From the NCBI RefSeq assembly GCF_000025945.1, contig NC_006138.1, positions 60,001 to 92,000 of the forward strand: a DNA stretch of 32,000 nt, written 5' to 3'. The DNA comes from Desulfotalea psychrophila LSv54. GTDB taxonomy: Bacteria; Desulfobacterota; Desulfobulbia; Desulfobulbales; Desulfocapsaceae. The notes under the pieces are model-generated. The model had not been told where the DNA came from. It was given only the letters and a program-made list of their open reading frames with translations, and did not search any database. The position numbers and the translations under genes are program-made. Numbering within the stretch: position 1 is the stretch's first letter; each line of letters begins with the position of its first letter. This document shows, one piece after another, positions 1 through 32,000 of the stretch.

Positions 1-18
1 TTTAAGCAGTTAGCAGTT

Positions 19-50
19 CACCAAAAAACCTCTGTGTTCTCTGTGGTGAT
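19..50 (-). repeat. mosaic repeat, module A (degenerate)
   Basis: CACCAAAAAACCTCTGTGTTCTCTGTGGTGAT has CTCTGTG at 30-36 and 39-45 (9-nt phasing). It is the reverse complement of the TTAACCACAGAG..CACAGAG..T-run module and lies directly downstream of the GxxExxY pseudogene. Confidence 0.75.
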
Positions 51-60
51 GTAGTTGTCT

Positions 61-428
61 TTACAAAACAAGACGTCGAACGCCATCCACCAAGCGAAGC
101 ACATTAAAATTGATCAATAATCCAGTATGTACCCCAGCAAGCTTCATATAGGTCAACACCTGAGCAGTATGAAGTGGCAACAATGCTTCCACCACCTTCA
201 GTTCAATAATGAGCTCATCAACGACAAGAAGATCAATACGATATCCCGCATCAATCTCAATTCCCTTATAGCGAAGAGGTAACATAACCTGAGTACGCAC
301 AGCATGAGACCTTACAACTCATACAGCAAACAACGTTCATAGCTTGATTCAAGCAAACCAGGACCAAGCTCACGATCAACTTCTATAGCACAACCAATCA
401 CTACGCCTGTCAACTCTTTGGCATCCAT
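61..428 (-). pseudogene. GxxExxY protein (small PD-(D/E)XK nuclease-like family), disrupted by a frameshift
   Basis: The ATG at 428 reads MDAKELTGVVIGCAIEVDRELGPGLLESSYERCLLYEL and then hits TAA at 314-312. The family C-terminus (RTQVMLPLRYKGIEIDAGYRIDLLVVDELIIELKVVEALLPLHTAQVLTYMKLAGVHTGLLINFNV, ORF 61-300) continues in a different frame. GLLESSY is the GxxExxY signature. A single indel near 311-320 would restore a protein of about 121 aa. Confidence 0.8.
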
Positions 429-491
429 AGCATCCTCTGTGTTCTTGGTCTCAATAATTAAAAACAAAGATAAGAACAGAAAAAACTACAG

Positions 492-527
492 TTAACCACA
501 GAGAAAAGGAGTTCACAGAGAAGAGCA
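492..527 (+). repeat. mosaic repeat, module A
   Basis: TTAACCACAGAG at 492-503 and a second CACAGAG at 514-520 (17-nt phasing). Confidence 0.8.
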
Positions 528-632
528 TTATAGATAAACTGCTTAAAGACAAAAAACAAAGATCAACTACTATAGTAGTTATCAATGTCCCCAAAAGAAC
601 TAGGTATTTAATCTTTATTTTTACTACTTTTA

Positions 633-673
633 AATAATTTCCTCTGTGTCCTCTTCTTCCTCTGTGGTTAACC
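633..673 (-). repeat. mosaic repeat, module A, abutting the ddl stop codon
   Basis: CTCTGTG at 642-648 and CTCTGTGGTTAA at 660-671 (18-nt phasing). The TAA of GGTTAACC on the minus strand (670-668) is the ddl stop codon. Confidence 0.85.
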
Positions 674-1636: not shown

Positions 1637-1758
1637 TTATTTCTTTCTCCGTGGTATTCGATCTCTATATTTATGCATCCTCACTCCTTTTAAAATTTCC
1701 CGGGAAGGATGTTCATTTGCCTCAAACCTTTAAAAATATTTCTTCCAGCCACTCTATT

Positions 1759-3165: not shown

Positions 3166-3173
3166 AAAACCCG

Positions 3174-3203
3174 TTGACAATGGCCAATCCCATTTAGTAT
3201 ATA
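3174..3203 (+). promoter_or_regulatory. candidate sigma70-type promoter upstream of rpsU
   Basis: TTGACA at 3174-3179, an 18-nt spacer, then TATATA at 3198-3203. This lies about 170 nt upstream of the rpsU ATG. Confidence 0.4.
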
Positions 3204-3370
3204 TGGGAGATTATCCTTTTAAAAAAGACCTTAAATTTTCATTTTTCAATGCCTCCGGGGGTGATAGAAGCTCTTTAGCTTTGATTTATTAGATATATAT
3301 AGACCATTGTATAAACACCGATCCCGTTGGGGATCTACAGATAATTGAATATTCGTAAAACGGAGCAGTC

Positions 3371-3565
3371 ATGATTGAAGTAGAAGTTAGAGGAGATCTC
3401 GAGTACGCGATCCGCCAATTGAAGAAAAAGTTGCAAATCGATGGTATCAAAAGAGAGCTCAAGCGTCGTGAGTACTACGAAAAACCAAGTGTTAAGAAGC
3501 GTCGCAAGCAGGCTGAGGCTCGCCGCAAGTTGCGCAAGTTCAACCGCATGAAGAAGTCTTACTAA
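3371..3565 (+). CDS. rpsU: 30S ribosomal protein S21
   Basis: 64 aa, highly basic, with the typical S21 sequence (LEYAIRQLKKKLQIDGIKRELKRREYYEKPSVKKRRK). GGAG lies 5 nt upstream of the ATG. Confidence 0.95.
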   Translation: MIEVEVRGDLEYAIRQLKKKLQIDGIKRELKRREYYEKPSVKKRRKQAEARRKLRKFNRMKKSY

Positions 3566-3572
3566 GTGTGGT

Positions 3573-3606
3573 GTTTCCAGTCCTATCTTTCGATAGGGCT
3601 GGAAAC
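3573..3606 (+). terminator. stem-loop directly after rpsU (no U-tract)
   Basis: GTTTCCAGTCCTATC (3573-3587) pairs with GATAGGGCTGGAAAC (3592-3606) over 15 positions, including one G-U. It starts 8 nt after the stop codon. No T-run follows, so it may be a processing or stability hairpin rather than an intrinsic terminator. Confidence 0.45.
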
Positions 3607-3650
3607 TACAGATGTCAGAAAGAACTTAAAAGCAACAACAAGAAAAAAAG

Positions 3651-3690
3651 TTAACCACAGAGGAAAATGAGGACACAGAGAGATTTTTTT
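3651..3690 (+). repeat. mosaic repeat, module A
   Basis: TTAACCACAGAG at 3651-3662, CACAGAG at 3674-3680 (18-nt phasing), T7 at 3684-3690. Confidence 0.85.
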
Positions 3691-3788
3691 GTGAACGGCA
3701 AACAAGCTCCCCCCTCTCTCTCATCGTACCCACCTCCTAGCATAATCAGCAAACGGGCCACCCACTCCCCACCCCAAAAAAGCTCTAT

Positions 3789-3807
3789 CGGAATGGCGAG
3801 CTGTCAG
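3789..3807 (+). repeat. mosaic repeat, 3' half of module C plus a CTGTCAG unit
   Basis: CGGAATGGCGAGCTGTCAG is identical to the corresponding part of 20330-20350. Confidence 0.7.
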
Positions 3808-3992
3808 TTAAGAGCAAAAAACGCTTTAAAGTTACATGTTAGTAAGAATTTATTTCACCATTGCATTACCCCTCCAGACAGATCCTTCTCACAGCACAAA
3901 TCTTTTTAAAACAAATAAATATTCACCATCTCTATCCCCATTTTTTAAAATTCAGCTCCTTGCTCTAACCCCAGCATCTTTTTCTTGTTTCT

Positions 3993-4048
3993 CCGCCACT
4001 CCGCTGCGCTTTGCTGCTGCTTTTTAATTAGTTTCCTCTGCGGTTAAC
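3993..4048 (-). repeat. mosaic repeat, degenerate module C plus partial module A
   Basis: CCGCCACTCCGCTGCGCTTTGCTGCTGC (3993-4020) is followed by CCTCTGCGGTTAAC (4035-4048). Confidence 0.6.
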
Positions 4049-4089
4049 TTTTTTCTTCTCCTGTTTTTCTCGCTGTTTCTCTCGTTGTT

Positions 4090-4183
4090 GCTTTTCGTCG
4101 TTCGCTTTTTATCAAAAAACCTCTGTGCTCTCTGTGATCTCTGTGGTTAGCTGTCTTCGCCACTCCGCCCTGCTTCACTGCTG
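4090..4183 (-). repeat. mosaic repeat, modules D + A (3 units) + C
   Basis: The reverse complement of 4090-4110 matches 16290-16310 (AAAAAGCGAACGACGAAAAGC) at 21/21. CTCTGTG occurs at 4121, 4130 and 4139 (9-nt phasing), followed by GTTAGC. CTTCGCCACTCCGCCCTGCTTCACTGCTG is at 4155-4183. Confidence 0.85.
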
Positions 4184-4309
4184 TCCTGTTTTTCTTTTCT
4201 TTTTTATTGGTCGATTGAAAGCCTGTGAAGCTTTAGCCTCAACATGTTACACTTGCGAAAAATATCTCGTTTACTATCAAAGTGATCTTGAAAAAATATA
4301 AGGACAAAC

Positions 4310-7021: not shown

Positions 7022-7654
7022 ATGACTGAAACTATTAACCAAATAATTCTGCTTGCCCCTCCCCTCCTGTTGGCCCTGACTATCCATGAATTTTGCCATG
7101 GCTATGTGGCCTATAAACTTGGTGATCCGACGGCAAAGCTTGCGGGCAGACTGACCCTCAACCCCCTCTCCCACCTTGACCCCATTGGCACCATTGCCTT
7201 TTTCTTTATCAAGATTGGCTGGGCTAAACCCGTTCCCGTTAACCCCAATTATTTCAAAAATCCGAGAAGAGACATGCTCTGGGTGGCACTTGCCGGCCCG
7301 ATCAGCAATCTTCTTTTGGCAATCATCAGTGCCATTGCCGCCAAGACCCTATGGGCCATTGCCCCCAGCCTACCGGCCACGGCCCTGATTAAGGCCATCG
7401 TCATCCCACTGAATGGCATGCTGGTGGCCTCCGTCTGGATCAACCTTGTCCTCTGTATCTTTAACTTCATCCCCATTCCTCCTCTCGATGGCAGTAAAAT
7501 CGTGGCAGGCCTTCTTCCCCGGGACCTGGCCATTGCCTATGAAAAGGTGGAAAAATATGGCTTTGTTATTCTGATACTTTTGGCCTTTAGCGGTTTGCTG
7601 TCAAAGGCTATTGTGCCTATTATTCGCTTTGCTAATGGGCTCTTACTATCATAA
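7022..7654 (+). CDS. site-2 protease family (peptidase M50) membrane protein
   Basis: It has the HEFCHG (HExxH) motif in the first TM segment, several hydrophobic helices, and the conserved LTLNPLSHLDPIGT block. I prefer the ATG at 7022 (GAGGA 6 nt upstream) to the adjacent TTG at 7019. Confidence 0.85.
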   Translation: MTETINQIILLAPPLLLALTIHEFCHGYVAYKLGDPTAKLAGRLTLNPLSHLDPIGTIAFFFIKIGWAKPVPVNPNYFKNPRRDMLWVALAGPISNLLLAIISAIAAKTLWAIAPSLPATALIKAIVIPLNGMLVASVWINLVLCIFNFIPIPPLDGSKIVAGLLPRDLAIAYEKVEKYGFVILILLAFSGLLSKAIVPIIRFANGLLLS

Positions 7655-7660
7655 AAGCAG

Positions 7661-7702
7661 ATGCTAGATGCTAGATGCTAGATGCTAGATGCTAGATGCT
7701 AG
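7661..7702 (+). repeat. tandem heptad array (ATGCTAG) x6
   Basis: Six perfect units start 6 nt after the site-2 protease stop codon. Confidence 0.95.
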
Positions 7703-7713
7703 AAAAAAATTAA

Positions 7714-7739
7714 CAGCAGCAGCGAAGCGGAATGGCGAG
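7714..7739 (+). repeat. mosaic repeat, module C variant
   Basis: CAGCAGCAGCGAAGCGGAATGGCGAG shares the GCGGAATGGCGAG core with 20328-20343 and 31944-31958. Confidence 0.65.
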
Positions 7740-7818
7740 TGCTAACGGCAAAAACTAAAAGAAAAAAGCAGAAACTGCGAACAGCAACAGCAAGGGAATT
7801 TACAGCCTGGAGGAAGAG

Positions 7819-8178
7819 ATGCTTTATGAGAATCTTGATGTCTGGAAGCGCAGTAGAGTGTTGGCTATCGAAACGTATACTGTTTTTAAAAATTGCAGAG
7901 ATTTTGGTTTTAAAGATCAAATTACTCGCTCATCTCTATCTGTTCCCAGTAATCTTGCAGAAGGTTGCGAAAGAACATCGATTCTCGAACGTATTCGCTT
8001 TTTTGATATTGCTAAAGGTTCTTTGGGCGAATTCAAGACGCAGGTCGACATTGGTATTGCGATTGACTATATAGAGTCCCGGCAAGGATCTCTTTGGTTG
8101 CGAGAGTCTGATGAAATTTCGCGGATGATTGCTGCAATGATGATAAAAATGAGACAGCAAAAAGAAAGCAAGAGCTGA
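7819..8178 (+). CDS. four helix bundle protein (23S rRNA intervening-sequence protein family, Avd-like)
   Basis: 119 aa. NLDVWKRSRVLAIETY...FKDQITRSSLSVPSNLAEGCERTS..ERIRFFDIAKGSLGEFKTQVDI matches the family signature (SxPSNIAEG, F..IA.GS..E). GGAGGA is at 7809-7814. Confidence 0.9.
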   Translation: MLYENLDVWKRSRVLAIETYTVFKNCRDFGFKDQITRSSLSVPSNLAEGCERTSILERIRFFDIAKGSLGEFKTQVDIGIAIDYIESRQGSLWLRESDEISRMIAAMMIKMRQQKESKS

Positions 8179-8188
8179 CACTAGGTAT

Positions 8189-8236
8189 TAGAAGCTACAG
8201 ATGCTAGAAGCTACAGATACGAGATACTAGATACTA
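8189..8236 (+). repeat. degenerate heptad-derived tract
   Basis: TAGAAGCTACAGATRC occurs twice (8189-8220), followed by GAGATAC and TAGATAC heptads. It is related to the CAGATACGAGATGCTAG prefix seen at 16147-16163. Confidence 0.7.
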
Positions 8237-8404
8237 AAAAGCGCAACTGCAAGAAAAGCCTAAAAGCAGCAGAGAGTCGGAGCGGATCGTCTCACATTAA
8301 AGCACTATTTTTTATATATTTTTTGTGTTTGTTCTTCTTTTGTCTTTCTGCCCTTGCGCTGGCTTTTTTCTGATAGCTTCAAGCTTATAGCTTTACCGCT
8401 TTTT

Positions 8405-8460
8405 CTAGCATCTCGAATCTAGCATCTAATATCTGTCTTTCTGCTCTTTCTAGCATCTCT
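8405..8460 (-). repeat. inverted heptad blocks (CTAGCATC x3)
   Basis: CTAGCATC at 8405, 8419 and 8450 is the reverse complement of the GATGCTAG units at 7661-7702. The interspersed CTGTCTTTCTGCTCTTTC is the reverse complement of the GAAAGAGCAGAAAGACAG-type prefix. Confidence 0.75.
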
Positions 8461-8476
8461 AAAGGATTTTTCACAA

Positions 8477-9352
8477 ATGCTTCCACAATCGAATCAGTCC
8501 AAGGGCCTTCTCATCGCCGCCCTTGGTGTCCTGGCCCTGACACCCGACACCCTGCTCGTTCGTCTAGCCCATCTTGACAGTACCACCCTGCTCTTTTGGC
8601 GAGGACTTGCCACCCTCATTGGTATGAGCGCAGTCACCCTCCTCCAGCATGGCAGGGACACGGCCCATCAGTTTCGCCAAATCGGCAAGACCGGTATCGG
8701 GGTGGGACTGTTGATGGGTTGCAGTAGCTGCTGTTTTGTCATGGCCCTCTACTATACCAGTGTTGCCAATACCCTGGTCATCCTCTCCTCCTCGCCGATA
8801 TTTGCCGCCCTGTACAGTCGAGTCTTCCTGAAGGAAAGGGTGGCCGGCAGAACCATTATCAGCATAATAGTGGTAATCACCGCCATCTCCTTCATTGTCG
8901 GCGACAGCGAGGGTAGCACCAGTCTCCTGGGCAACTGCATCGCCCTCTGTGCAGCAATGTGCATGTCAGCCGGTTTCACCATGATGCGCAGTGGGAAAAA
9001 ACGCAATATGATACCTGCCACTGCCCTGGGAGGAATCATCCTCATCTGCGTCGGAGCAAGTCTGGCTCCATCCCTGGCACTCTCCTGGCAACAGGCGGCC
9101 CTTATTGTCTGCATGGGCGTCTCCTCTGCGGCGGGATTTATCATGATCACCATGGCCACCCGTTATATCAGTTCACCCGAGGTCAGCCTTCTGATGCCCA
9201 TCGAAACGGTGCTGGCCAGTTATATCGTTTGGCTCGTTCTGGGAGAGGCCCCCGCGACCATAACCATCATCGGTGGCATAGTCATTATTAGCACCCTCAG
9301 CCTCCACTCCTTGCTGTCACTACGTTCCATCCCAGCCCGGCCCCTCGATTGA
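8477..9352 (+). CDS. DMT (EamA-like) family transporter
   Basis: 291 aa with about 10 hydrophobic helices in two EamA-like halves. Confidence 0.8.
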   Translation: MLPQSNQSKGLLIAALGVLALTPDTLLVRLAHLDSTTLLFWRGLATLIGMSAVTLLQHGRDTAHQFRQIGKTGIGVGLLMGCSSCCFVMALYYTSVANTLVILSSSPIFAALYSRVFLKERVAGRTIISIIVVITAISFIVGDSEGSTSLLGNCIALCAAMCMSAGFTMMRSGKKRNMIPATALGGIILICVGASLAPSLALSWQQAALIVCMGVSSAAGFIMITMATRYISSPEVSLLMPIETVLASYIVWLVLGEAPATITIIGGIVIISTLSLHSLLSLRSIPARPLD

Positions 9353-11795: not shown

Positions 11796-12415
11796 TGCGT
11801 ATAGGTGGTCTACAAAAATTCACCCTCTCTGACTATCCGGGAGTACCCGCTGCCATCATCTTCACTCAGGGATGCAACTATCGTTGCCCCTTCTGCCACA
11901 ATGGGAACCTATTGCCCATGCAGGGGAGTGAAGAGATCGAGGTAGAAGAGGTCCTCTCCTGGTTACGGGAGAGACAGGGAAAGCTCGACGGGGTAGTCAT
12001 TACCGGTGGTGAACCCACCCTGCAGGCTGATCTTGGTTCCTTTATCTGCCAGATCAGAGAGATGGGGTATAAAATCAAGCTCGATAGCAATGGCAGCCAT
12101 CCAGAAGTATTGGAAAAGCTGCTCGATCAGGGCCTCATTGATTTTGTGGCCATGGATGTTAAGGCCCCGGCAGCTAAATACTCTCGGCTTTGCGGGGTCA
12201 AGGTTAATCTTGAGCACATAGAGCAGAGCATGGAGATCATTGCCAAATCTGGTGTTGAGCACCTCTTCCGGACCACCTATGTCGAGGCCTTTTTGGATGA
12301 GGCTGATTTAGCGGAGATCCGGGGACTGATACCGACGGGCTCAACCTATGTGCAACAGTCTTTTCGTCCTGAGAATGCTCTTAGTGAGGAATTGAGACAA
12401 ACAAAAAGCGATTAA
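11795..12415 (+). CDS. nrdG: anaerobic ribonucleotide reductase activating protein (radical SAM)
   Basis: It has the CNYRCPFCHN radical-SAM cluster motif and a GGEPTL block. The start overlaps the nrdD stop (TAATG). Confidence 0.9.
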   Translation: MRIGGLQKFTLSDYPGVPAAIIFTQGCNYRCPFCHNGNLLPMQGSEEIEVEEVLSWLRERQGKLDGVVITGGEPTLQADLGSFICQIREMGYKIKLDSNGSHPEVLEKLLDQGLIDFVAMDVKAPAAKYSRLCGVKVNLEHIEQSMEIIAKSGVEHLFRTTYVEAFLDEADLAEIRGLIPTGSTYVQQSFRPENALSEELRQTKSD

Positions 12416-12451
12416 CCACAGAGAGAAGGAGAACACAGAGAAAGACTTTTT
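12412..12451 (+). repeat. mosaic repeat, module A, abutting the nrdG stop codon
   Basis: TTAACCACAGAG at 12412-12423, where the TAA at 12413-12415 is the nrdG stop. CACAGAG at 12434-12440 (17-nt phasing), followed by a T-run. Confidence 0.85.
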
Positions 12452-12548
12452 AGGTAAAGAACCAAAAAACTTTGACTGTGAAGCTCTAGCGAAATGATGA
12501 ACCTCTCTCCGACAGAAGTTCAAGCAGTTAATCTTTTCACAAAAAACA

Positions 12549-12638
12549 CTCTGTGGACTCTGTGGACTCTGTGGACTCTGTGGACTCTGTGGACTCTGTG
12601 GACTCTGTGGACTCTGTGGACTCTGTGGACTCTGTAGT
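12549..12638 (-). repeat. tandem 9-nt array (CTCTGTGGA) x9 plus one degenerate unit
   Basis: Nine perfect units span 12549-12629, followed by CTCTGTAGT. This is an expanded module A core in minus orientation, preceded by A6 (T-run on the minus strand). Confidence 0.95.
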
Positions 12639-12675
12639 TGATTTTAAAAGCCAACTATTAAGGGCAACAAAAAAA

Positions 12676-12709
12676 GGAGCTGACCTCGAAAGAGATCAGC
12701 TCCTTTTTT
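12676..12709. terminator. bidirectional intrinsic terminator between nrdG and the fadL-type gene
   Basis: GGAGCTGA (12676-12683) pairs with TCAGCTCC (12696-12703), and an inner CTC/GAG pairing closes a GAAA tetraloop. A7 lies upstream (12669-12675) and T6 downstream (12704-12709). Confidence 0.8.
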
Positions 12710-12879
12710 ATTGGACAACTACTTGAAAAATATAGCTGATAAATTATCTCTTTAAGGCTTTTTCGACAAACCCCTCCCAGCCTCCCCTTACCAAGAGGAG
12801 GAGTGGACCCTGCCCATTTCAACCCATTATCTACGAATCAACAAGGCATTGCCTCTAAGAAAATATTTCTGCCTTTAAG

Positions 12880-12940
12880 TTTTTTCTAGTATCTAGCATC
12901 CGCCATTCCGCGATGCTTCACTGCTCGTATCTGTCTTTTC
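12880..12940 (-). repeat. mosaic repeat, prefix + module C + heptads, abutting the fadL-type stop codon
   Basis: The reverse complement reads GAAAAGACAGATACGAG-GCAGTGAAGCATCGCGGAATGGCG-GATGCTAGATACTAGAAAAAAC. The C core (12901-12924) matches 20318-20341 at 22/24. It starts immediately after the TAG at 12943-12941. Confidence 0.85.
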
Positions 12941-15940: not shown

Positions 15941-16140
15941 GGAACACCACCTCACAGGTAAAAAGGAGAGCCAGGGACCTACAGTCAAGTAAACCCCATA
16001 AAAAAAAAGACCAGCACATCTGTTGATGCAGGCCCTTTCTCATATAGCACACGCTAATTCTCTTCAATAAAAGTAAAGAATATGACTTATAATCAATTTT
16101 TATACTTTTAACAGCCTTAAATTTTTAGGGAAAGGGCGGA

Positions 16141-16310
<170 letters not shown>

Positions 16311-16393
16311 AGGAAGGGCAGAGGGCACAGAGGAAATTATTAAAAAAGCAACAGAGAGAGAAACAACGAGAAAAATCAAGCTATTAGCGCAAT

Positions 16394-16419
16394 CGACATT
16401 CCGATCTGCTTCACTGCTG
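16394..16419 (-). repeat. mosaic repeat, degenerate module C
   Basis: CGACATTCCGATCTGCTTCACTGCTG resembles CGCCATTCCGCGATGCTTCACTGCTC at 12901-12926. Confidence 0.55.
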
Positions 16420-16500
16420 TTTTTTAGGCTTTTCTAGCCTCTGCTCTTTCTGACAGCTGATAGCTCCAGTCTTAAAGCTGTCTTTTCTGTAGTTTATATA

Positions 16501-16625
16501 AAAAGTTTCTCTGTGTTCTCCTAAGCAGTGGTTAACATTTGCTGTTGCTGCTGTTTTTAGGTTTTTTCTAGCATCCGCCATTCCGCGGTGCTCCACTGCT
16601 CGCATCTAGTATCTGCTCTTTCTGC
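16501..16625 (-). repeat. composite mosaic element (inverted partner of 16141-16310)
   Basis: The reverse complement reads GAAAGAGCAGATACTAGATGCGA-GCAGTGGAGCACCGCGGAATGGCG-GATGCTAGAAAAAAC..CAGCAGCAACAGCAAATGTTAACCAC..CACAGAGAAACTTTT. The C core at 16576-16599 matches 20318-20341 at 24/24. Confidence 0.9.
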
Positions 16626-16635
16626 CCTAGACCCC

Positions 16636-16689
16636 AAAAAGCAGGTAACGGGAAATAAGGGAGGTCTCCATATCACTGTTCCTGCTTTT
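16636..16689 (-). terminator. possible terminator hairpin downstream of the DUF1566 gene
   Basis: On the minus strand, AAAAGCAGGAAC pairs with GTTACCTGCTTTTT. That is a 5+3 bp stem with a bulge and a large loop containing the GGAGACCTCC palindrome, followed by T5. This is a weak call. Confidence 0.3.
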
Positions 16690-19394: not shown

Positions 19395-20317
19395 ATGAAA
19401 ATTGTTATTATCGGCCCGGGTTCCATGGGCCTACTCATCGCCTCAAAACTTGCCTTGGCAGGTAATGAGCCGCTCCTGCTTGATTATCGGCAGGAGCGGG
19501 CAGAGAGGCTGAACCAAACGGGAATCATCTACCAAAACCGGCAGGATAAACAGATCTGCCGACCGAAATTTATCTCCCAGCCCAGGAACCTCACCAACAT
19601 TGATGCCCTTATCTTTTGTGTCAAGTCCTACTCACTGAGCCAATCCCTTCAGTTTTGCCAACCTCTTTTAGAGCGGTGCTCCCTGGCCCTCTTTATGCAA
19701 AATGGCATCAGTCATCTCCAACCACGCCGGCCCGATCATGTAAGCGCCGCCTTTGCCAGCACCACCGAAGGCGCTTACCTGGTAGAGCCGGGCCATATCT
19801 ATCATGCCGGTCAGGGAATAACTAAAATCGGCTTTCTTGCCAATGCCCCCGAGAAGAGCCAACGTCTTCTTAAAGAGCTTATTACGGAACTGAACAGTTC
19901 AGGTCTAAAAAGCGAAGAGAGCAAGACGATAGAGGAGGTTGTCTGGTCTAAGCTCCTGGTCAATATTGGCATTAACGGCCTGACAGCCATCTACAACTGC
20001 ACCAATGGCGAGCTACTCAAACGACCCGAGGCGCAGGCACGAATGAAAAGGGCCGTGACCGAGGCAGAAGAGGTGGCCCGGGCAATTGGTATAAAACTGC
20101 CGCCAGACCCCCTTGAGCAGGTACGGGCCGTCTGCCGGGCAACAGAAAACAATATATCATCAATGCTCCAGGATATCAGGGCGGGACGAAGTACTGAGAT
20201 CAGGGCTATCAATGTGGCTCTGTTAGAAATTGCCACGCAGCATGGTATTGCCTGTCCTGAAAATGCCCTTATAGTATCTGAGGTGCTCCGAAAAGAAGCT
20301 TTAAGACTGGAGCTATA

Positions 20318-20318
<1 letters not shown>
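19395..20318 (+). CDS. panE: 2-dehydropantoate 2-reductase
   Basis: It has the N-terminal Rossmann motif MKIVIIGPGSMG and a ketopantoate reductase C-terminal domain (SSMLQDIRAGRSTEI). Confidence 0.85.
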
Positions 20319-20487
<169 letters not shown>

Positions 20488-20540
20488 AAATTAAACTGCC
20501 TAAAAACAGAGATGAAATTTTAATTTTAAAGACTTTTAAT

Positions 20541-20750
20541 ATTATTTCTCTGTGTACTTGGTTGCCAGCGGCTAACTGTTTTCGCTTTTCTCGTTCTACC
20601 TCTCGCCTTTCGCTACTTCGCTGCTATCTTTTAGGCAGTGGCAGTTTACCAAAAAGATCTCTGTGTGCTTGGTTGCAGTGGTTAACTTTTTTTTGCTTTT
20701 TGTTTTTCGCTTTTCGCTTTTCGCCACTTCGCTACGCCCCGCTGCTACTG
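20541..20750 (-). repeat. two tandem degenerate [A-D-C] module sets in inverted orientation
   Basis: CTCTGTGTACTTGGTTGCCAGCGGCTAAC (20548-20576) and CTCTGTGTGCTTGGTTGCAGTGGTTAAC (20659-20686) lie 111 nt apart. Each is followed by a TTCGCTTTTC-type D remnant and a CGCC(T/A)(T/C)TTCGCT..GCTGCTA C remnant (20606-20627 and 20722-20750). Confidence 0.75.
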
Positions 20751-20827
20751 ACAACTGAAATCTATAACAAGACTAACGTAAAACAGAAAAATCACTACAA
20801 AAGTAGAAAATATAAAGAGAGAAAAAC

Positions 20828-22062: not shown

Positions 22063-22078
22063 ACGGAGTCAGCGAATA

Positions 22079-23881
22079 CTAACTACGAATTCGTACGCCT
22101 GGCTTCTTACGCAGACGAATGGACTGAGGAGTTACCTCAACGAGCTCATCATCGTTGATATAGGCAATACAATCTTCCAAGGTCATTGCCTTTGCTGGAA
22201 CAAGAATAACGGCTTCATCGGAACCAGAGGCACGCATATTGGTAAGTTTCTTGCCCTTAGCTGGGTTAACAACCAAATCAGCTGCACGAGCATGCTCACC
22301 AACAATCTGTCCCGCATAAAGGGGATCGCCCGGCTTAACAATAAGGTAACCACGATCCTGAAGGTTGAAGAGTGCGAAGGCTACGGCTACACAGGTCTCT
22401 TTTGCAATCAGAACGCCGTTCACACGGTTAATAATATCACCAGCATATGGACCGTACTCGGAGAAGACATAAGCCATCATGCCCATTCCCTTGGTATCGG
22501 TCATAAATTGTGATTTATAACCCAAAAGACCACGGGTTGGAATCTTGTAAATCAAACGAACCATGCCATTTGCAAGGGTCATCTCTTCCATCTGACCTTT
22601 CAATTTACCAAGCTTCTCAATAACCGGTCCCTGATAGAGTTCATCAACGTCAACGGTAAGGGTTTCGTATGGCTCAAGTACCTGACCATTATCATCTTCG
22701 CGCATGATAACTTGAGGACGGGTTACCTGAAACTCAAATCCTTCACGACGCATATTCTCAATAAGAATGGAAAGATGCAATTCACCACGACCAGATACCT
22801 TAAAACCTACAGCATCGGTGAGAGGCTCATAGCGAAGGGCAACATCGGAGAGAATCTCTTTTTCAAGACGATCACCAATATGACGTGAGGTAACATACTT
22901 TCCTTCACGACCAGCAAAAGGTGAATCGTTTGGAATGAAATGCATGGAGATGGTAGGTGGATCGATCTCAATGAGTGGCAGAGGGGTTGGATTCGCAAGG
23001 TCGGTAAATGTTACACCAACGTTTACATCATCCATACCGGCAACAGCAACAATTTCACCAACGCTGGCACTCTCTATTGACACCTTGCCATCACACTCAA
23101 AACGGTAAATTTTGGTGATACGAACAGGGGTGAGAGATCCATCACGACGGGCCACAGCAATGGGTTGATTGATGGTCATGGTGCCATTCACAACTTTACC
23201 AATGCCAAGACGACCAAGGTATGGAGAATAATCAATGGTACCAACCTGCATCTGCAGAGGAGCATCAACAGAACCCACTGGTGCTGGAGTCTGTTCGATG
23301 ATCATCCTGGAGATACACTCCATACTACCACCATCAACGATCTCATCATCAGGATTAAGAAGGGCATAGCCCTCTTTCGCCGAGGCGTAGACAATAGGAA
23401 AGTCAAGGATATGATCAGGGGCATTCAACTTAACAAAGAGGTCGAAAACCTGATCTACAACCCAGTCACAACGAGCTGCTGGCTTGTCAATTTTGTTAAT
23501 TACCACGATTACAGGAAGATGGTTCTCAAGGGCCTTCTTAAGAACAAAGTAGGTCTGTGGCATTGGTCCTTCCTGAGCATCAACGAGGAGCAGGGCTCCA
23601 TCCGCCATACGCAAAACACGCTCTACCTGGCCACCGAAATCGGCATGGCCTGGGGTATCAATGATGTTAATCATATGATCGTCGTAATGGTATGAACCGT
23701 TTTTAGCGGTAATGGTAATTCCGCGCTCTTTTTCAATATCGCCGGAGTCCATAAGACGCTCGGACACTGCCTGGTTATCTCTGAACATACCAGACTGTTT
23801 AAAAAGCTCATCAACCAAGGTTGTTTTTCCATGATCAACGTGGGCGATAATAGCAACGTTACGAATTTTACTTTGTTCCAT
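22079..23881 (-). CDS. typA: translational GTPase TypA/BipA
   Basis: 600 aa with IRNVAIIAHVDHGKTTLVD, DTPGHADFGG and NKIDK G-motifs. Colinearity across the full length is typical of BipA. Confidence 0.95.
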   Translation of the reverse strand: MEQSKIRNVAIIAHVDHGKTTLVDELFKQSGMFRDNQAVSERLMDSGDIEKERGITITAKNGSYHYDDHMINIIDTPGHADFGGQVERVLRMADGALLLVDAQEGPMPQTYFVLKKALENHLPVIVVINKIDKPAARCDWVVDQVFDLFVKLNAPDHILDFPIVYASAKEGYALLNPDDEIVDGGSMECISRMIIEQTPAPVGSVDAPLQMQVGTIDYSPYLGRLGIGKVVNGTMTINQPIAVARRDGSLTPVRITKIYRFECDGKVSIESASVGEIVAVAGMDDVNVGVTFTDLANPTPLPLIEIDPPTISMHFIPNDSPFAGREGKYVTSRHIGDRLEKEILSDVALRYEPLTDAVGFKVSGRGELHLSILIENMRREGFEFQVTRPQVIMREDDNGQVLEPYETLTVDVDELYQGPVIEKLGKLKGQMEEMTLANGMVRLIYKIPTRGLLGYKSQFMTDTKGMGMMAYVFSEYGPYAGDIINRVNGVLIAKETCVAVAFALFNLQDRGYLIVKPGDPLYAGQIVGEHARAADLVVNPAKGKKLTNMRASGSDEAVILVPAKAMTLEDCIAYINDDELVEVTPQSIRLRKKPGVRIRS

Positions 23882-23957
23882 CCTGGTTGTCCTATAGCCA
23901 AAAAAGGCGGGGTTGGGTAATCTTAGTCAGAAGTACATCCCCAGCCTTTGGGGGTGC

Positions 23958-23990
23958 AAAAAAAAAAAGGCTTCGCAATCATGCGTCGCC
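23958..23990 (-). terminator. hairpin plus T11 in the typA upstream/leader region
   Basis: On the minus strand, GGCGACGCA-TGAT-TGCGAAGCC forms 7 bp with a 2x2 internal loop and is followed by 11 T (A11 at 23958-23968 on the plus strand). It lies between the predicted typA promoter and the typA ATG. Confidence 0.35.
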
Positions 23991-24005
23991 TTAGAGTAAC
24001 ATTAC

Positions 24006-24033
24006 ATTATACACAAAGTATCAAACTTGGCAA
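24006..24033 (-). promoter_or_regulatory. candidate sigma70-type promoter of typA
   Basis: On the minus strand: TTGCCA (24033-24028), a 16-nt spacer, then a perfect TATAAT (24011-24006). Confidence 0.45.
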
Positions 24034-24145
24034 GTATAAAAATCCACACCAACACCACCTATTACCGAAGAAAATGTTTGTCTGTCATCTTTATTTGGAC
24101 TTATGCATGCATCTTTACCGGAGAGACTCGACCCTGTCAGAACCA

Positions 24146-24307
24146 TCACCCCATTCCTCTGCCAGAGCCGCCACCCCGCCCAGAACGGCCTTTTCCCCCA
24201 GCACGATCACCATTTTTCCGCTTCGATCCACCCTTAGGTCCAGAGCGAATAACCAATAAAATAAGAACTAAACCAACAAGTAAACCTAATAATGCACCTA
24301 AGGTCAT
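24146..24307 (-). CDS. possible small membrane protein with Gly/Arg-rich tail
   Basis: MTLGALLGLLVGLVLILLVIRSGPKGGSKRKNGDRAGGKGRSGRGGGSGRGMG has one clear TM helix followed by a basic tail. There is an alternative ATG at 24319. The RBS is weak and I recognise no family. Confidence 0.3.
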   Translation of the reverse strand: MTLGALLGLLVGLVLILLVIRSGPKGGSKRKNGDRAGGKGRSGRGGGSGRGMG

Positions 24308-24569
24308 CACGTCCCCCATTCTAAAATTGCCACAAGGCCAGGAAAAGAAACAGGCTGCCATAGCCAAAGCTATATAACTACATTCATCACAAAGCTACTA
24401 TGATAAGTAATAATGGCGACAGGGCCTCCCTGTCAAGAAAACTTCGAAGCAAAGGAAGTACAGCTGCCGCCAAGAGAGGAGTAGCCTCACAACTATTTGC
24501 ACTTCTAACAAAGCTTTTGTACTATTAGATTTTAAAATAATTGATCTCTTCTACCTTAAAGGAACCACC

Positions 24570-25172
24570 ATGCTGAAATACATCGCCCTGCTGACAATCA
24601 GCCTCTGCTCTTTTTGCCAAGCAGCCTACGCCCAACCAGGCACCCCACCCATTATCGTTGACCTCCCCGAGGCGGTAATAGAAAAGGCTCTCCAGGAAAT
24701 TATCCCACTGTCCATCCCTACCAATTCCGACAGCATCTCTGGTACCATCGAAATTGCCCAGATAAGCGAACTCAAGCTCAGCAACAAGATACTCTCCTGC
24801 AAAACCAAACTGAAGGGTCACAATATCCAACTGGGAACCAAACTTGGCAGCCAGGTCATCCACCTTAATGTTGGTGAGGTAGAGACTAATTTTTCCACCG
24901 AGGCAACTCTCCGCTTTGACCCCGCAGGCAAACAAATATTCATCAAACCCGTTCTCAAAAATGGCTCCTCAGATGGTGATGCCCTCAGTAACGCCCTGCT
25001 CCTACTCTTAAGCGGCAAGGAGTTCCCCCTAAAACTTGAGAAGATAAAGCCCATCACCGCCCAGATAGATCAACAGAAACTATTTATCGACATGGCGCTC
25101 TCAGACATCATCATCAAAGAGGGTCTCCTGCGAGTACTTTTGCACCCTAAAGTATATAAGGAAAAGCTGTAG
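24570..25172 (+). CDS. secreted hypothetical protein
   Basis: 200 aa with a signal peptide (MLKYIALLTISLCSFCQAAYA). AAAGGA lies 6 nt upstream. I recognise no family. Confidence 0.6.
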   Translation: MLKYIALLTISLCSFCQAAYAQPGTPPIIVDLPEAVIEKALQEIIPLSIPTNSDSISGTIEIAQISELKLSNKILSCKTKLKGHNIQLGTKLGSQVIHLNVGEVETNFSTEATLRFDPAGKQIFIKPVLKNGSSDGDALSNALLLLLSGKEFPLKLEKIKPITAQIDQQKLFIDMALSDIIIKEGLLRVLLHPKVYKEKL

Positions 25173-25219
25173 GAGAACAACAGCTGGCAGTTATCAAATA
25201 GATGAGGACAAAAAAACAA

Positions 25220-25500
<281 letters not shown>

Positions 25501-25529
25501 ACTAAAACTAACAGCAAACGAGGGACATA

Positions 25530-27549: not shown

Positions 27550-27617
27550 AACATTATTTATGGTGTTAATATTTAATAAGAAAAACAAAATCATAACAGG
27601 ATGAATGGATAACAGAC

Positions 27618-28259: not shown

Positions 28260-28358
28260 AGAGTGGCAGTACCTCCAGGATACAATCATTTTTTGGTGTA
28301 AGTTACCCATATCTGGTATGATAAAGAAATCATCAAACCTCAACCCAGAATAACCACC

Positions 28359-30128
28359 TTGCAATCATCCGCATCAGAAAAAAGACCTTCTCTCCGCCAA
28401 CTCCTCCTGCTGGTGGCCCCCTCCTTTAAAAGGTATCGCCTCCGGATATCCCTGGGGCTCATGGCCCTGATTATCGTTGATATCCTGCAACTACTAATTC
28501 CACGTATCCTCAAGCAAGGCATTGACTCCATCTCCACGAAAGCAGAGACGACCAATCTGGCCCAACTTGCAATTTTTATTATCTGCATTGCCTGCACCGT
28601 TATCATCCTTCGCTTTTGCTGGCGCTATATGATTTTAGGCTTTTCCCGTATCCTTGAGTGCACCATTCGCAACAGTATATTTTCCCATATCCTGCAAATG
28701 GACGCCACTTTTTTTGAAAAAAACAGTACGGGAAAATTAATGGCCCACTCATCAAATGACTTAAGCGCCGTGCAAATGGCCTTTGGCATGGGTACAGTGG
28801 CAGCCGTCGACTCCTCCGTAATGCTGACCGTAGCCATCGCCTTTATGCTCTCCATCAATGTCAAGCTCACCATTCTGGCCCTCGTCCCCCTGCCTCTTCT
28901 GGCGATAAGCACTAAAATACTGGCAGGACAGTTACACACCCGATTCGAGACAGTACAGGAACAATTTTCCCATCTCACCGAGTTTTCCCGTTCAGCCATC
29001 TCTTCCATATGGTTAGTAAAGGCATACACAATGGAAGATCTACAGACAAATCAATTCGATGCCCTTGGCAAAGAGTATGTCAGGGCAAATCTGAAGGTTG
29101 GCGTCATAAATGGCCTATTGCAGCCCCTCTCCACCCTGGTTGGAAATCTCGGCATACTATCGATATTCTTTTTTGGGGGGAGAATGGTCATCCAAGAAGT
29201 GATCAGCCTCGGTGATTTTGTTGCCTTTATCACCTATCTCTATATGCTCATCTGGCCCATGATGGCCATCGGCTGGGTGACCAACCTCGCTCAAAGAGGA
29301 TTAACCTCACTACAGAGAATACGCCTCCTTATGGAGCAAAAATCGATGATGCTCGATGGCCCGGAAAAGGCCTCAAGAGAGACCAAGGGGGCACGAATAG
29401 AACTCTGTGACCTCTCCTTCACCTACCCCAATGCCTCACAGCCAGCCCTGCACCATATAAATCTCACTTTCTTAGAAAAAACATATGGACTCACGGGGCG
29501 AACAGGCTGCGGCAAGACCAGCCTCTGTCGAATTCTTTGCAGGCTTTATCCTGTAGAGGACGGTATGTACCTCCACAACGAAATAGACGTTAACAGGCAA
29601 GGCCTCAACGAACTGCGAGAGCAGATCAGTTATGTCAGCCAGGAGTCCACCCTCTTCTCCGATACGGTGAAAAACAATATTCGTTTTGGCAATGAGGAGG
29701 CAAGCGAAGAGGAGATAACAGAAGCCGCGCGACGGGCAGACATACACAATAATATCAGTGAATTGAGCAATGGCTATGACACACTCATCGGCGAACAGGG
29801 CGTTAAGCTCTCCGGTGGCCAACGACAACGCATTGCCCTGGCCCGAGCCCTGCTGACAAAACGGCCCATCCTCCTGATCGACGATGGTCTCTCCGCCGTC
29901 GATGTCGAAACCGAGCACCAAATTTTCTCCCGACTCCGGGAAGGAGAAAACAAAACTATCATCATCATCTCCAACCGGATAAAACTCCTCTCCATGACCG
30001 ATGAGATTATTATTTTAGACAGTGGCGAAATAGCCGACCGTGGTAGCCACCAACACCTCCTGAGACACAATTCCCTCTATCAGTCCATGGCTAAAAAACA
30101 ACAGGAACAGAGGGAGGAGAAACTATGA
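28359..30128 (+). CDS. ABC exporter fused permease/ATPase, subunit with non-canonical catalytic residues
   Basis: It has six TM helices plus an NBD. Walker A is GRTGCGKTS and the signature LSGGQRQR is canonical. Walker B is ILLIDD-G (Asp in place of the catalytic Glu) and the H-loop is IIISNR (Asn in place of His). It appears to start at TTG with no convincing SD, so the start is uncertain. Confidence 0.85.
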   Translation: MQSSASEKRPSLRQLLLLVAPSFKRYRLRISLGLMALIIVDILQLLIPRILKQGIDSISTKAETTNLAQLAIFIICIACTVIILRFCWRYMILGFSRILECTIRNSIFSHILQMDATFFEKNSTGKLMAHSSNDLSAVQMAFGMGTVAAVDSSVMLTVAIAFMLSINVKLTILALVPLPLLAISTKILAGQLHTRFETVQEQFSHLTEFSRSAISSIWLVKAYTMEDLQTNQFDALGKEYVRANLKVGVINGLLQPLSTLVGNLGILSIFFFGGRMVIQEVISLGDFVAFITYLYMLIWPMMAIGWVTNLAQRGLTSLQRIRLLMEQKSMMLDGPEKASRETKGARIELCDLSFTYPNASQPALHHINLTFLEKTYGLTGRTGCGKTSLCRILCRLYPVEDGMYLHNEIDVNRQGLNELREQISYVSQESTLFSDTVKNNIRFGNEEASEEEITEAARRADIHNNISELSNGYDTLIGEQGVKLSGGQRQRIALARALLTKRPILLIDDGLSAVDVETEHQIFSRLREGENKTIIIISNRIKLLSMTDEIIILDSGEIADRGSHQHLLRHNSLYQSMAKKQQEQREEKL

Positions 30129-31933
30129 AAAGCTATGGATACGACGAGGCCGGGCAGACAGGCTCCCTGACAGACGGGCAACTCTGGGGCCGCATCCTGC
30201 AAATGACGGCTGCCTACAAATGGCACCTGCTCGCTGCTATCATTCTCTCCCTACTCATCACCGCCACCAGCCTCAGTCTCCCCCACCTTATCCAAAGGGG
30301 TATCGACGATTTTATGACAGCGACCAAACTGCCCATGGACACCAGGTTTTCCGGCATTGGTCAAATAGCTGTTCTTTACGCAGCATGCATTACCCTTTTT
30401 TTCGCAGCCAACTTTCTCCAGATCGTCCTCCTCGAGTGGATTGGACAAAAGGTAATGCACCATATTCGCCAAACCCTCTTCCGTCGCATGTTAGGCTTCG
30501 ACCTCCGCTTCTTCAGCGATCATCCGACGGGCAGCTTAGTCACCAGGCTCACAAACGATATTCAAAATATGCACGATATGTTCACCTCGGTGATCGTCAA
30601 CCTCTTTAATGACTGCCTACGCCTTATTGGCATTCTGGCCATCCTTATCCTGATGAATGCCCGTTTAGGGCTCTTCATGACCCTCTTCCTCCCCCTCGCC
30701 CTGATCAGCACCATCATCTTTTCCCGCCTGGCCCGGAAAAAATTCAGGGCCATGCGGGTCGGGATCGGCAAAATCAACACCTTTCTCAGCGAAGCGATAT
30801 CAGGGGCATCAACCATCCAGCTCTTTGGCCGTGAGCGAACATTCTTTTCTCAGTTCAAAGAGATAAATCAAACCTACCTAGGCCACTGCCTGGGACAGGT
30901 AAAGGTGTTTGGCGCCTTTATGCCCTTCACCGAGTTTATGGCAACCATCGCCACGGCCTTTATCCTTTGGTATGGCGGTGGCCAGGTAATACAAAAGCAT
31001 CTCAGCCTGGGGGAACTGGTGGCCTTCCTCTCCTATATGCGCCTCTTCTTCCAACCACTCCGGGAACTCTCACAAAAATACTCCATCGTCCAGGCGGCCA
31101 TGGCCTCGGCTGAGCGAATCTTCCATCTACTCGATACAGAGTCACAGATAAAGGCACCGGAAAGACTTTCTGGCCCGTCCTCCCCTGTTCAGGGAGAGAT
31201 TATCTTCAATGACATCCACTTTAGCTACAACCCCAAGGTACCGACACTCAGAGGCATCAACCTCCATATCCAAGCCGGCCAGACCATAGCCATCGTCGGT
31301 ACCACCGGAGCAGGTAAAACCAGCCTTATCAACCTCCTGCTACGATTTTATGACCCCGAAAAGGGGCAGATAACAATCGACGGCAATAATATCAGCCAAT
31401 ATCCCTTCAAGACCCTTCGTTCCATGGTGGGGGTTATTTTACAGGATATTATTTTATTGCAAGATACCCTCCTTGCCAATATTATCATGGACACCAACCG
31501 ATCACGCGCCGAGGTTGAAAAAATATTAACAGAGACGGGGATGAACCGTTTTGTAAAAAAACTCCCCAAAGGCTTAGACAGCGCCATTGGCCCGGGCGGT
31601 CAGAATCTCTCTACCGGAGAAAAGCAGCTCCTCTCCTTTGCCAGGGTACTCTGCCGCAGACCGGCTATAATCGTCCTTGATGAGGCAACCGCCGCCATCG
31701 ATACCGAGTCTGAAAATATCCTTGAAGAGGCCTTAGCTAAAACATTTGTCAACCGTACTTCCATCATCATCGCCCATAGACTTTCCACCATAAAGAGGGC
31801 TGATAAGACTATTGTTATGGACAGGGGCAGGATAATCGAACAGGGTAGCCACCAGGAACTGCTGGCTCTTAAGGGTCGATATTATCACCTCGTTCGTCTT
31901 GACCAGAAGCAATTAGGGGGAAATAAGCTGTAG
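30125..31933 (+). CDS. ABC exporter fused permease/ATPase, partner subunit
   Basis: Walker A is GTTGAGKTS, Walker B is IIVLDEAT and the H-loop is IIIAHRL, but the signature is LSTGEKQ (degenerate). There is an ATGA overlap with the upstream gene and a strong GGGAGGAG SD. Confidence 0.9.
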   Translation: MKSYGYDEAGQTGSLTDGQLWGRILQMTAAYKWHLLAAIILSLLITATSLSLPHLIQRGIDDFMTATKLPMDTRFSGIGQIAVLYAACITLFFAANFLQIVLLEWIGQKVMHHIRQTLFRRMLGFDLRFFSDHPTGSLVTRLTNDIQNMHDMFTSVIVNLFNDCLRLIGILAILILMNARLGLFMTLFLPLALISTIIFSRLARKKFRAMRVGIGKINTFLSEAISGASTIQLFGRERTFFSQFKEINQTYLGHCLGQVKVFGAFMPFTEFMATIATAFILWYGGGQVIQKHLSLGELVAFLSYMRLFFQPLRELSQKYSIVQAAMASAERIFHLLDTESQIKAPERLSGPSSPVQGEIIFNDIHFSYNPKVPTLRGINLHIQAGQTIAIVGTTGAGKTSLINLLLRFYDPEKGQITIDGNNISQYPFKTLRSMVGVILQDIILLQDTLLANIIMDTNRSRAEVEKILTETGMNRFVKKLPKGLDSAIGPGGQNLSTGEKQLLSFARVLCRRPAIIVLDEATAAIDTESENILEEALAKTFVNRTSIIIAHRLSTIKRADKTIVMDRGRIIEQGSHQELLALKGRYYHLVRLDQKQLGGNKL

Positions 31934-31986
31934 CAGTGGAGCGTAGCGGAATGGCGAGCTATCAGCTGTCAGCTGTCAGCTGTCAG
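31933..31986 (+). repeat. mosaic repeat, module C plus CTRTCAG heptads, abutting the ABC gene stop codon
   Basis: GCAGTGGAGCGTAGCGGAATGGCG at 31933-31956 (21/24 to 20318-20341) starts at the G of the TAG stop. CTATCAG plus (CTGTCAG)x3 spans 31959-31986. The window ends inside the element. Confidence 0.85.
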
Positions 31987-32000
31987 CTAAAAGCAAAAAC

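Follow-up and report, generated by a model that had tools for sequence, protein, structure and literature searches.

Intergenic mosaic repeats of Desulfotalea psychrophila as probable inverted arms of small hairpin cassettes

The window, a stretch of 32,000 nucleotides (nt) of the Desulfotalea psychrophila chromosome, contains intergenic spacers filled with short sequences that recur in both orientations, and the question raised by this locus is what these sequences are and how they came to be there. The explanation favored here, with a probability of about 0.6, is that the repeats are the inverted arms of small selfish "ORF-in-a-hairpin" cassettes (ORF, open reading frame), together with ORF-less remains of such arms expanded by slippage. 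It is built on arms in inverted order that covary, on cargo genes between the arms, on ORF-less copies, on a patchy spread across phyla and on absence from close relatives, all of which were observed. The cargo genes belong to the GxxExxY family (TIGR04256/PF13366) and to a four-helix-bundle family. Metagenomic loci and loci of relatives are designated by L-numbers.

Repeat vocabulary of the spacers

An earlier note on this DNA had described a mosaic repeat family in ten of about 22 spacers, and this finding is real and more general than first thought. All ten of the spacers that it named bear modules, the gene map giving about 19-22 spacers in total, and the family is a genuine mosaic of intergenic repeats, with modules that recur in several spacers and in both orientations. 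Module A consists of (T)TAACC or CACC followed by three CRCNNAG units in a roughly 9-nt phase. The claimed excess of CACAGAG/CTCTGTG was reproduced, with 40 copies in the window against 4.0 +/- 2.1 in shuffled sequences, none of which reached 40; the number of copies in spacers is 34, and not at least 35 as had been counted by hand. The identities reported for two further modules were also recovered by a repeat finder. The copies of module C at 16576-16600 and 20317-20341 are complementary at 25/25 positions, that at 12901-12925 matches at 92%, and the module D block extends over 43 nt at 84% between 4078-4120 and 16280-16322.

Moreover, the tandem arrays of period 6, 7, 9 and 10 were reproduced by Tandem Repeats Finder, several of them at 100% identity. 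Arrays of period 6 lie at 16196-16241 and 20356-20443, those of period 7 at 7659-7703, 16155-16192, 25467-25498 and 31957-31988, those of period 9 at 12548-12635 (9.8 perfect copies), 4121-4145 and 16256-16280, and one of period 10 at 25269-25321. The consensus units include AGATGCT, AGATGCG, AGCTGTC, TTTTCGC and the hexamer AGCAAC. The arrays run head-to-tail without spacers and no cas domain was found among the ORFs of the window, in agreement with the earlier statement that this is not a CRISPR locus.

Replication slippage in long spacers could by itself yield perfect arrays of this kind, as neutral products without any identity as elements. Several arrays are indeed 100% perfect, and two assemblies of one locus described below carry different numbers of copies. 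Slippage would account for the growth of arrays and not for their origin: non-repetitive modules (C at 25/25, D, and A including its TTAACC head) are found again in several spacers, with their order conserved and in both orientations, and modules recur in other phyla and classes. This explanation is therefore regarded as extremely improbable.

Inverted layout and folding

The modules are purine-rich and poor in T in one orientation. In most spacers, the left part carries modules in sense and the right part their reverse complement, in roughly mirrored order, and several modules or whole spacers can therefore form one long imperfect hairpin. End-to-end hairpins were predicted for 16141-16625 (minimum free energy -168.6 kcal/mol, z -6.55), 470-685 (minimum free energy -50.5 kcal/mol, z -4.86) and 8179-8476 (z -3.39), and the minimum-energy folds of 20318-20765, 3607-4215 and 7650-8476 bring both ends together. 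The repeats had previously been called direct-repeat based and not palindromic; this holds for single modules and fails at the scale of the spacer, where left halves are sense and right halves antisense. Two further points of the earlier description were not supported. No terminal inverted repeats had been defined, and module A is itself a terminal inverted-repeat arm that occurs in convergent pairs in many phyla. No associated gene had been recognized, and convergent arms enclose GxxExxY genes, two cargo genes lying within the window's own modules. The elements found in the window are the following, with the strand given where one was assigned.

1-60, minus strand: antisense module A arm, with CTCTGTGTTCTCTGTGG at 30-46 after an A-run; inverted match to 25223-25253; adjoins the 3' end of the broken GxxExxY gene; a partner arm, if present, would lie to the left of position 1.
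61-430, minus strand: broken GxxExxY gene (TIGR04256, PD-(D/E)XK-type); N-terminal part from 430 down to an in-frame stop, remainder (318-64) in another frame.
470-685: hairpin element without an ORF; sense arm 491-520 (TTAACCACAGAG..CACAGAG), paired with antisense arm 640-672.
3607-4215: composite element 3' of rpsU; sense arm 3650-3680, antisense arms 4030-4047 (degenerate) and 4121-4150, antisense module D 4090-4110, antisense module-C-like units 3990-4012 and 4150-4180.
7650-8476: cargo-bearing element; (AGATGCT)6 and sense modules 7655-7818, four-helix-bundle (23S-rRNA-IVP) gene 7819-8178 on the plus strand, sense modules 8179-8290, antisense heptamers and modules 8300-8476.
12412-12940: composite element between the convergent genes nrdG and fadL; sense arm 12412-12440 with a TTAA that holds the nrdG stop codon, antisense 9-mer array (ACTCTGTGG x 9.8) 12548-12635, hairpin at about 12662-12710 near the center, antisense module C and heptamers 12880-12940.
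16124-16636: best-preserved composite hairpin; left half, in sense, with ACAGATACGAG, (AGATGCT)5, (AGCAAC)8, module A 16250-16280 and module D 16290-16310; right half, antisense, with a module-C-like unit, a degenerate module A 16509-16537, (CTGTTG)n, module C 16576-16599 and heptamers.
20311-20765: composite element between panE and NT5C; module C from the last base of the panE stop codon, (GCAACA)14.7, module A 20446-20476; antisense half 20540-20760, including two degenerate arms (20548-20575 and 20659-20685).
25173-25529, plus strand: sense-only half element 5' of a DUF2867 gene; module A 25219-25240, (AGTAGCAGTG)5 at 25269-25321, CGGAATGGCG, CTGTCAG units, (AGATGCG)4.6 at 25467-25498.
31926-32000, plus strand: start of a sense half that meets the end of the window; module C from the last base of an ABC-transporter stop codon, then (AGCTGTC)4.6.

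The region 31926-32000 is 88% identical over 40 nt to 20311-20350, and the element at 7650-8476 occupies exactly the gap from the M50 peptidase gene to the EamA gene. The start of some elements falls on or within the stop codon of the gene that precedes them (12412-12415, 20316-20341 and 31931-31956). The TAA of nrdG sits inside the TTAACC head of module A; panE and the ABC-transporter gene both end in ...GCT(A/G)-TAG, and module C (TAGCAGTGGAGC) starts with the G of this TAG. Additionally, GC-rich stem-loops with flanking A/T runs, terminator-like by eye, were seen at 3570-3606, after rpsU, and at 12662-12710, between nrdG and fadL. As these ordinary terminator-like structures lie beside or in the middle of a composite, the modules add to the normal terminators and do not replace them.

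Module A arms in other phyla

A collection of 596 Gb was scanned, with one genome per species, for TTAACCACAGAG-N(2-11)-CACAGAG, a pattern for which about 40 chance matches were expected by arithmetic. At least 120 stretches were matched. Among the matches listed were Acidobacteriota, Planctomycetota, Verrucomicrobiota, Chloroflexota, Bacteroidota, Cyanobacteria, Nitrospirota, Chlamydiota and others, together with a Methanothrix bin, and the GC content of these genomes ranged from 27 to 72%. The usual form is an A- or T-run, (T)TAACC or TCACC, three heptamers phased at 9 nt, a loop of 10-200 nt and the reverse complement. Three 9-nt units make about 27 nt per arm, and convergent pairs of module A give hairpins of 55-230 nt. 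The elements were almost always intergenic, with 73 in co-directional, 24 in convergent and 14 in divergent context; a further 17 were inside ORFs that had been called only crudely, and for 29 at the ends of loci no context was callable. Module A k-mers are the only ones that the 120 loci share with the window; neither modules C and D nor the arrays of hexamers and decamers were found there.

A search of a plasmid collection yielded only two Bacteroides finegoldii records, in which the module A hairpin lies directly after miaB and between pheT and dnaB. These records (L125, NZ_OY725921.1, and L126, NZ_OY725914.1) are circular "plasmids" of 72 and 192 kb with the chromosomal core genes miaB, pheT, dnaB and ispE, and they look like pieces of a chromosome. 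Near-identical ORF-less hairpins, several per contig and in tandem or scattered, were seen in L151 (1195-2379), L092 and L117 (2443-3008); each shares flanks beyond the arms, which suggests recent local amplification in those genomes. In a Geobacteraceae contig (L020, 1398-1669), the arms enclose an ORF of 59 amino acids that is Cys-rich (CxxC...CxxC...CxxC), is not GxxExxY and has no NCBIfam match.

GxxExxY genes between the arms

GxxExxY genes were found within or beside module A arms in several of these loci. An Omnitrophota contig (L066) carries two of them, each with a sense arm on one side and an antisense arm on the other. The arms directly adjoin the start and the stop of the gene in a Planctomycetota contig (L075), and the gene of a Terriglobales contig (L071) lies beside a hairpin. 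The gene at 61-430 of the window matches the L066 protein (phmmer, 2.7e-23), and the residues encoded by 64-318 score 86.2 bits with TIGR04256 against a cut-off of 35; the reading frame is interrupted. It is annotated by NCBI as a fragment of 74 amino acids and has modules on both sides. Two further GxxExxY paralogs, intact and of 123 amino acids, are present in the D. psychrophila chromosome and are 90% identical to the window fragment.

As an independent test, 80 metagenomic loci were picked solely by similarity to GxxExxY proteins, and an arm was called when at least two tandem CRCNNAG units were present, within 200 nt upstream for the 5' arm. A sense arm was detected upstream in 62 of the 80 loci and an antisense arm downstream in 54, both being present in 46, against a background of 0.28 arms per kb elsewhere in the same loci. 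The median distance from the end of the 5' arm to the start of the protein-profile match is 28 nt, and that from the stop codon to the 3' arm is 6.5 nt. The type of heptamer varies among elements (CACAGAG, CACGAAG, CACGGAG, CGCAGAG, CGCGGAG, CGCCGAG and others), and the two arms vary together: the variable heptamer positions are complementary in 88.2% of cases in cognate arms, compared with 55.4 +/- 3.4% after shuffling of the partners (at most 66.7% in 1000 trials). The duplex energy of the flanks was likewise lower for cognate (-56 kcal/mol) than for non-cognate pairs (-41.7 kcal/mol; p = 2.7e-10).

Such a close association might mean that the arms serve only the cis-regulation of the cargo gene, either as tandem operators for the encoded protein or as a hok-type 5'-3' fold-back that silences the mRNA of a toxic nuclease, with the ORF-less copies as decayed genes. 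The short median distances of both arms from the gene, a third heptamer that often gives a GGAG/GAGG Shine-Dalgarno-like sequence, the covariation of the two arms and the broken copy in the window would all agree with this. Against it, ORF-less hairpins of 55-170 nt are common, show no trace of a decayed ORF and occur several per contig (L151 and L092), the window contains 14 arms and a single GxxExxY remnant, and the sense transcript is free of the G:U bias considered below. Purely cis-regulatory arms are considered unlikely.

The AlphaFold model of one D. psychrophila paralog, P0242, was obtained with a predicted local distance difference test score (pLDDT) of 96.8. Its nearest structural matches were Cas4 SSO0001, lambda-exonuclease-like enzymes and the nuclease domains of AddAB/AdnAB; Hjc resolvase and tRNA-splicing endonucleases were more distant. 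The residues D67, E77, K79, Q91 and Y95 are invariant in 42 homologs, and presumably correspond to the D...ExK and QxxxY motifs of RecB-family nucleases. According to this model, GxxExxY is a protein of about 123 amino acids with a Cas4/RecB-like PD-(D/E)XK fold. No solved structure was matched by its sequence, and the sole functional note found for PF13366 reads "unknown, multiple transfers" (PMC3424549).

A four-helix-bundle gene between heptamer arms

The other cargo gene of the window lies at 7819-8178 on the plus strand and matches PF05635 (3.6e-29) and TIGR02436, the family of S23p or 23S-rRNA-IVS proteins (IVS, intervening sequence). It is bracketed by inverted arms of the (AGATGCT)n type at 7650-7707 and 8400-8443. 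Among the 120 best matches of the protein there was no close D. psychrophila paralog, and the nearest relatives were from marine gammaproteobacteria, with 60-70% identity. In those bacteria, the gene lies in polysaccharide-synthesis operons and not in rRNA, and it is flanked by stretches rich in purines and by arrays of heptamers or octamers that stand in inverted order. A Paraglaciecola locus (L207) shares (AGATGCT)4, AAAAAGCAACTGCAGG and TCTAGCATCTCGAATCTAATATCTG with the window, around the homologous gene. As these arm sequences are common to both, gene and arms appear to have moved together between bacterial classes. A tblastn search with the window protein against the 120 motif-selected loci gave no match, and therefore the four-helix-bundle family is not generally linked to CACAGAG arms. 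Among solved structures, the protein matched only the uncharacterized XCC0516.

Copy numbers could be compared in one four-helix-bundle locus represented in two assemblies, L212 and L214 (ENA ERZ928181 and ERZ928254), which differ by 3 vs 5 copies of CGTAACT upstream and 8 vs at least 13 copies of CGCAACT downstream. This difference is direct evidence of a change in array length. At the right end of the element (8455-8479 in the window, 2868-2895 in L207), the start codon of the following host gene is immediately preceded by an outward Shine-Dalgarno-like sequence, which reads CTAAAGGATTTTTCACAAATG in D. psychrophila and, in Paraglaciecola, CCTAAGGATTATAGTATG; both were seen by eye and were not aligned to each other by MAFFT. 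Such an end might limit the polar effects of an insertion.

Close relatives and a possible service to the host

In two Desulfotalea sp. genomes (L121 and L123), about 22 kb around typA, partly syntenic with the window, were compared in each, and they contained neither any of the tested modules nor similar tandem arrays. The BipA proteins of these genomes are 87% identical to that of the window. The distance between panE and NT5C is 4 nt in L123, compared with 509 nt in the window, where a complete sense-antisense composite lies between the two genes. The L121 and L123 loci have a GC content of about 40%, and the window one of 45-55%, a large shift of composition inside one named genus.

These comparisons bear on the proposal that the repeats serve the host in the manner of repetitive extragenic palindromic (REP) sequences or bacterial interspersed mosaic elements (BIMEs), as hairpins that would stabilize the mRNA upstream of them, terminate or partition transcripts, or act as binding sites for nucleoid proteins or gyrase. 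The nearby small genes would then be incidental. Long and stable hairpins, arms flanked by A-runs and T-runs, a strictly intergenic position in all gene-orientation contexts and some excess at convergent gene ends are what this proposal would lead one to expect. By contrast, the elements are absent from close relatives at orthologous junctions and patchy across phyla although the arm sequence is conserved. Between 58 and 78% of the GxxExxY genes selected by protein are enclosed by arms, and the association is therefore not incidental. A consensus scan for promoters and terminators gave the same counts as shuffled sequences, terminator-like patterns thus standing at background, and the T-run after the stem is inconsistent: Bacteroides has a T-run...A-run order, the reverse of D. 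psychrophila. A role for the host is accordingly judged improbable as the explanation of the family.

Proposed origin and spread of the cassettes

Under the selfish-cassette reading, there would be two kinds of cassette. The first would consist of module A arms around GxxExxY genes in many phyla, and the second of AGATGCT/AGATGCG/AGATACG heptamer arrays and their purine-rich neighbors around a lineage of four-helix-bundle genes common to D. psychrophila and marine gammaproteobacteria. Both may have entered the D. psychrophila lineage by horizontal transfer and multiplied there mostly as non-autonomous ORF-less hairpins, which would then have fused into composites. The arrays probably grew by replication slippage, which would explain why they are perfect. 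By analogy with rRNA intervening sequences, the arm stem of 25-30 bp could be cut by RNase III in a read-through transcript; if so, the cassette would leave the polycistronic RNA at little cost to its neighbors. For spread at the level of DNA, the leading candidate is the encoded nuclease, which may act in trans on arm DNA.

Several results weigh against this reading. Target-site duplications are lacking, the lengths of direct repeats in 136 elements being distributed as in a control with shuffled partners, and no recognized transposase or integrase was found in or adjoining any element; for both reasons, mobility is deduced from distribution only. A conserved rRNA motif was found in none of the sampled loci, and since no sampled cassette lies in rRNA, the link to intervening sequences is one of architecture and cargo family only. 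In the ORF-sense transcript, arm mismatches are not biased toward G:U (12 vs 16); selection at the RNA level is thus not demonstrated, and the constraint could equally act on DNA. The association of four-helix-bundle genes with arms was seen in six loci of one subfamily. The fold z-scores of 20318-20765, 3607-4215 and 7650-8476 are not significant (-0.66 for 3607-4215, whose minimum-energy fold pairs the left arm with the right half), and the spacer 25173-25529 is a sense half alone. Finally, modules C and D, like the arrays of hexamers and decamers, are assigned to these elements by their adjacency and their common order in the window.

A broader proposal can be put forward only tentatively, and its odds are considered to be rather low, though substantial. 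The CRCNNAG-armed hairpin with its GxxExxY Cas4/RecB-like nuclease might constitute a so far unrecognized mobile element of many phyla that leaves no target-site duplication, with the nuclease acting on arm DNA. The ORF-less hairpins would then be a near-universal family of REP-like elements or miniature inverted-repeat transposable elements (MITEs), a parallel class would exist around four-helix-bundle genes (S23p/Avd-like), and the ORF-bearing intervening sequences of 23S rRNA would be the special case that landed in rRNA.

Few unexplained families of small genes are as common in environmental bacteria as GxxExxY and the four-helix-bundle "IVS protein" family, which often have many copies per genome. 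If a covarying hairpin shell carries these genes and also multiplies without them, both families would gain a concrete genetic context, rRNA intervening sequences would become one landing site of a wider class of elements, and an abundant intergenic repeat of many phyla that is ignored by present genome annotation would receive an explanation. For D. psychrophila, this would account for about half of the long spacers in the window, and the perfect tandem arrays are likely to vary in length between strains.

Comparison with known systems

No description of these arms was found in the literature, and the closest known architecture is the ORF-bearing intervening sequence of 23S rRNA. Rfam gave no match, and no paper on a bacterial repeat was retrieved by a literature search with a set of arm strings. 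The intervening sequence of Coxiella 23S rRNA has 428 nt, with a terminal stem of 28 bp around an S23p ORF, and is excised from the rRNA precursor by RNase III (PMC4990558). Sequences of the Coxiella burnetii and Leptospira type resemble the present elements in being cassettes of about 430-490 nt with a stem of about 27-28 bp and an ORF of about 120 amino acids in the loop (PMC4990558). The window elements are closed by a stem of about 25-30 bp formed from terminal inverted repeats, the element at 7650-8476 carries an ORF of the same S23p/PF05635 family, and in both systems the distribution is sporadic and points to horizontal transfer. Unlike intervening sequences, the window copies lie between protein genes and not in helix 9, 25 or 45 of 23S rRNA, their arms are made of tandem units of 7-9 nt, many copies are ORF-less and the GxxExxY cargo has a predicted nuclease fold.

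The earlier note had named BIMEs as the closest concept. BIMEs remain a reasonable comparison for short extragenic units that are arranged as a mosaic in both orientations, and the ORF-bearing intervening sequence of 23S rRNA is the better match. As in the BIMEs and REPs of enterobacteria, short units are combined in both orientations, occupy a large share of the spacers and can form hairpins in transcripts. A REP is an imperfect palindrome of about 35 nt and is tied to RAYT transposases. The units described here differ in being direct repeats without self-complementarity, so that pairing needs a distant inverted partner, and the family crosses phyla. No RAYT-like gene (Y1 transposase) was detected among the window ORFs scanned with Pfam.

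MITEs are similar in that they are small, non-coding and multi-copy, with terminal inverted repeats and longer gene-bearing relatives that have the same ends. The elements analyzed here differ from them in the lack of target-site duplications, and their gene-bearing relatives encode a four-helix-bundle protein or a 123-amino acid protein with a predicted Cas4/RecB-like nuclease fold, and no known transposase. In the favored reading, the ORF-less copies would be empty, MITE-like derivatives of IVS-like cassettes.

Short tandemly repeated repetitive (STRR) or TAACTGA repeats have been described in cyanobacteria and Beggiatoaceae, with 169 direct sets against one indirect (MacGregor 2015, PMC4679880). 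They too are tandem heptamers of intergenic regions, some just upstream of start codons, with a patchy spread across phyla that suggests horizontal transfer without an evident mechanism (PMC4679880). Their heptamers are different (CCCCAGT, TTGGTCA, CAACAGT and TAACTGA), and the arrays described here stand in inverted pairs around a gene or loop. The multicopy "class 4" elements of G. metallireducens were ruled out, as they consist of CCYTC pentamers. Integron attC sites, CtrA boxes, sigma-54 promoters and a piggyBac-type TTAA duplication were also dropped, the features or partner genes being absent or indistinguishable from an extension of the palindrome.

Other features of the window

No Rfam family and no tRNA gene were found in the window. 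At gathering scores, Rfam gave 0 matches in the window and 15 loci, and in E-value mode it gave sub-threshold noise alone, largely from generic microRNA-type hairpin models. A composition filter of 25 nt (T-poor or A-poor) for the borders of arms was dropped because it was too permissive within genes.

The gene content of the window is of an ordinary housekeeping kind and comprises ddl, an FAD oxidase gene, rpsU, a CBS-DHH-poly(A) polymerase gene, the M50 peptidase and EamA transporter genes, nrdD/nrdG, fadL, an acyl-CoA ligase gene, panE, NT5C, a NUDIX gene, typA and two ABC transporters. The gene typA, for the TypA/BipA protein, lies at 22079-23881 on the minus strand. The 688 nt that separate it from an ORF of 200 amino acids at 24570 (23882-24569) bear none of the modules and contain short ORFs with TTG starts and no Pfam match; this segment is T-poor on the plus strand.

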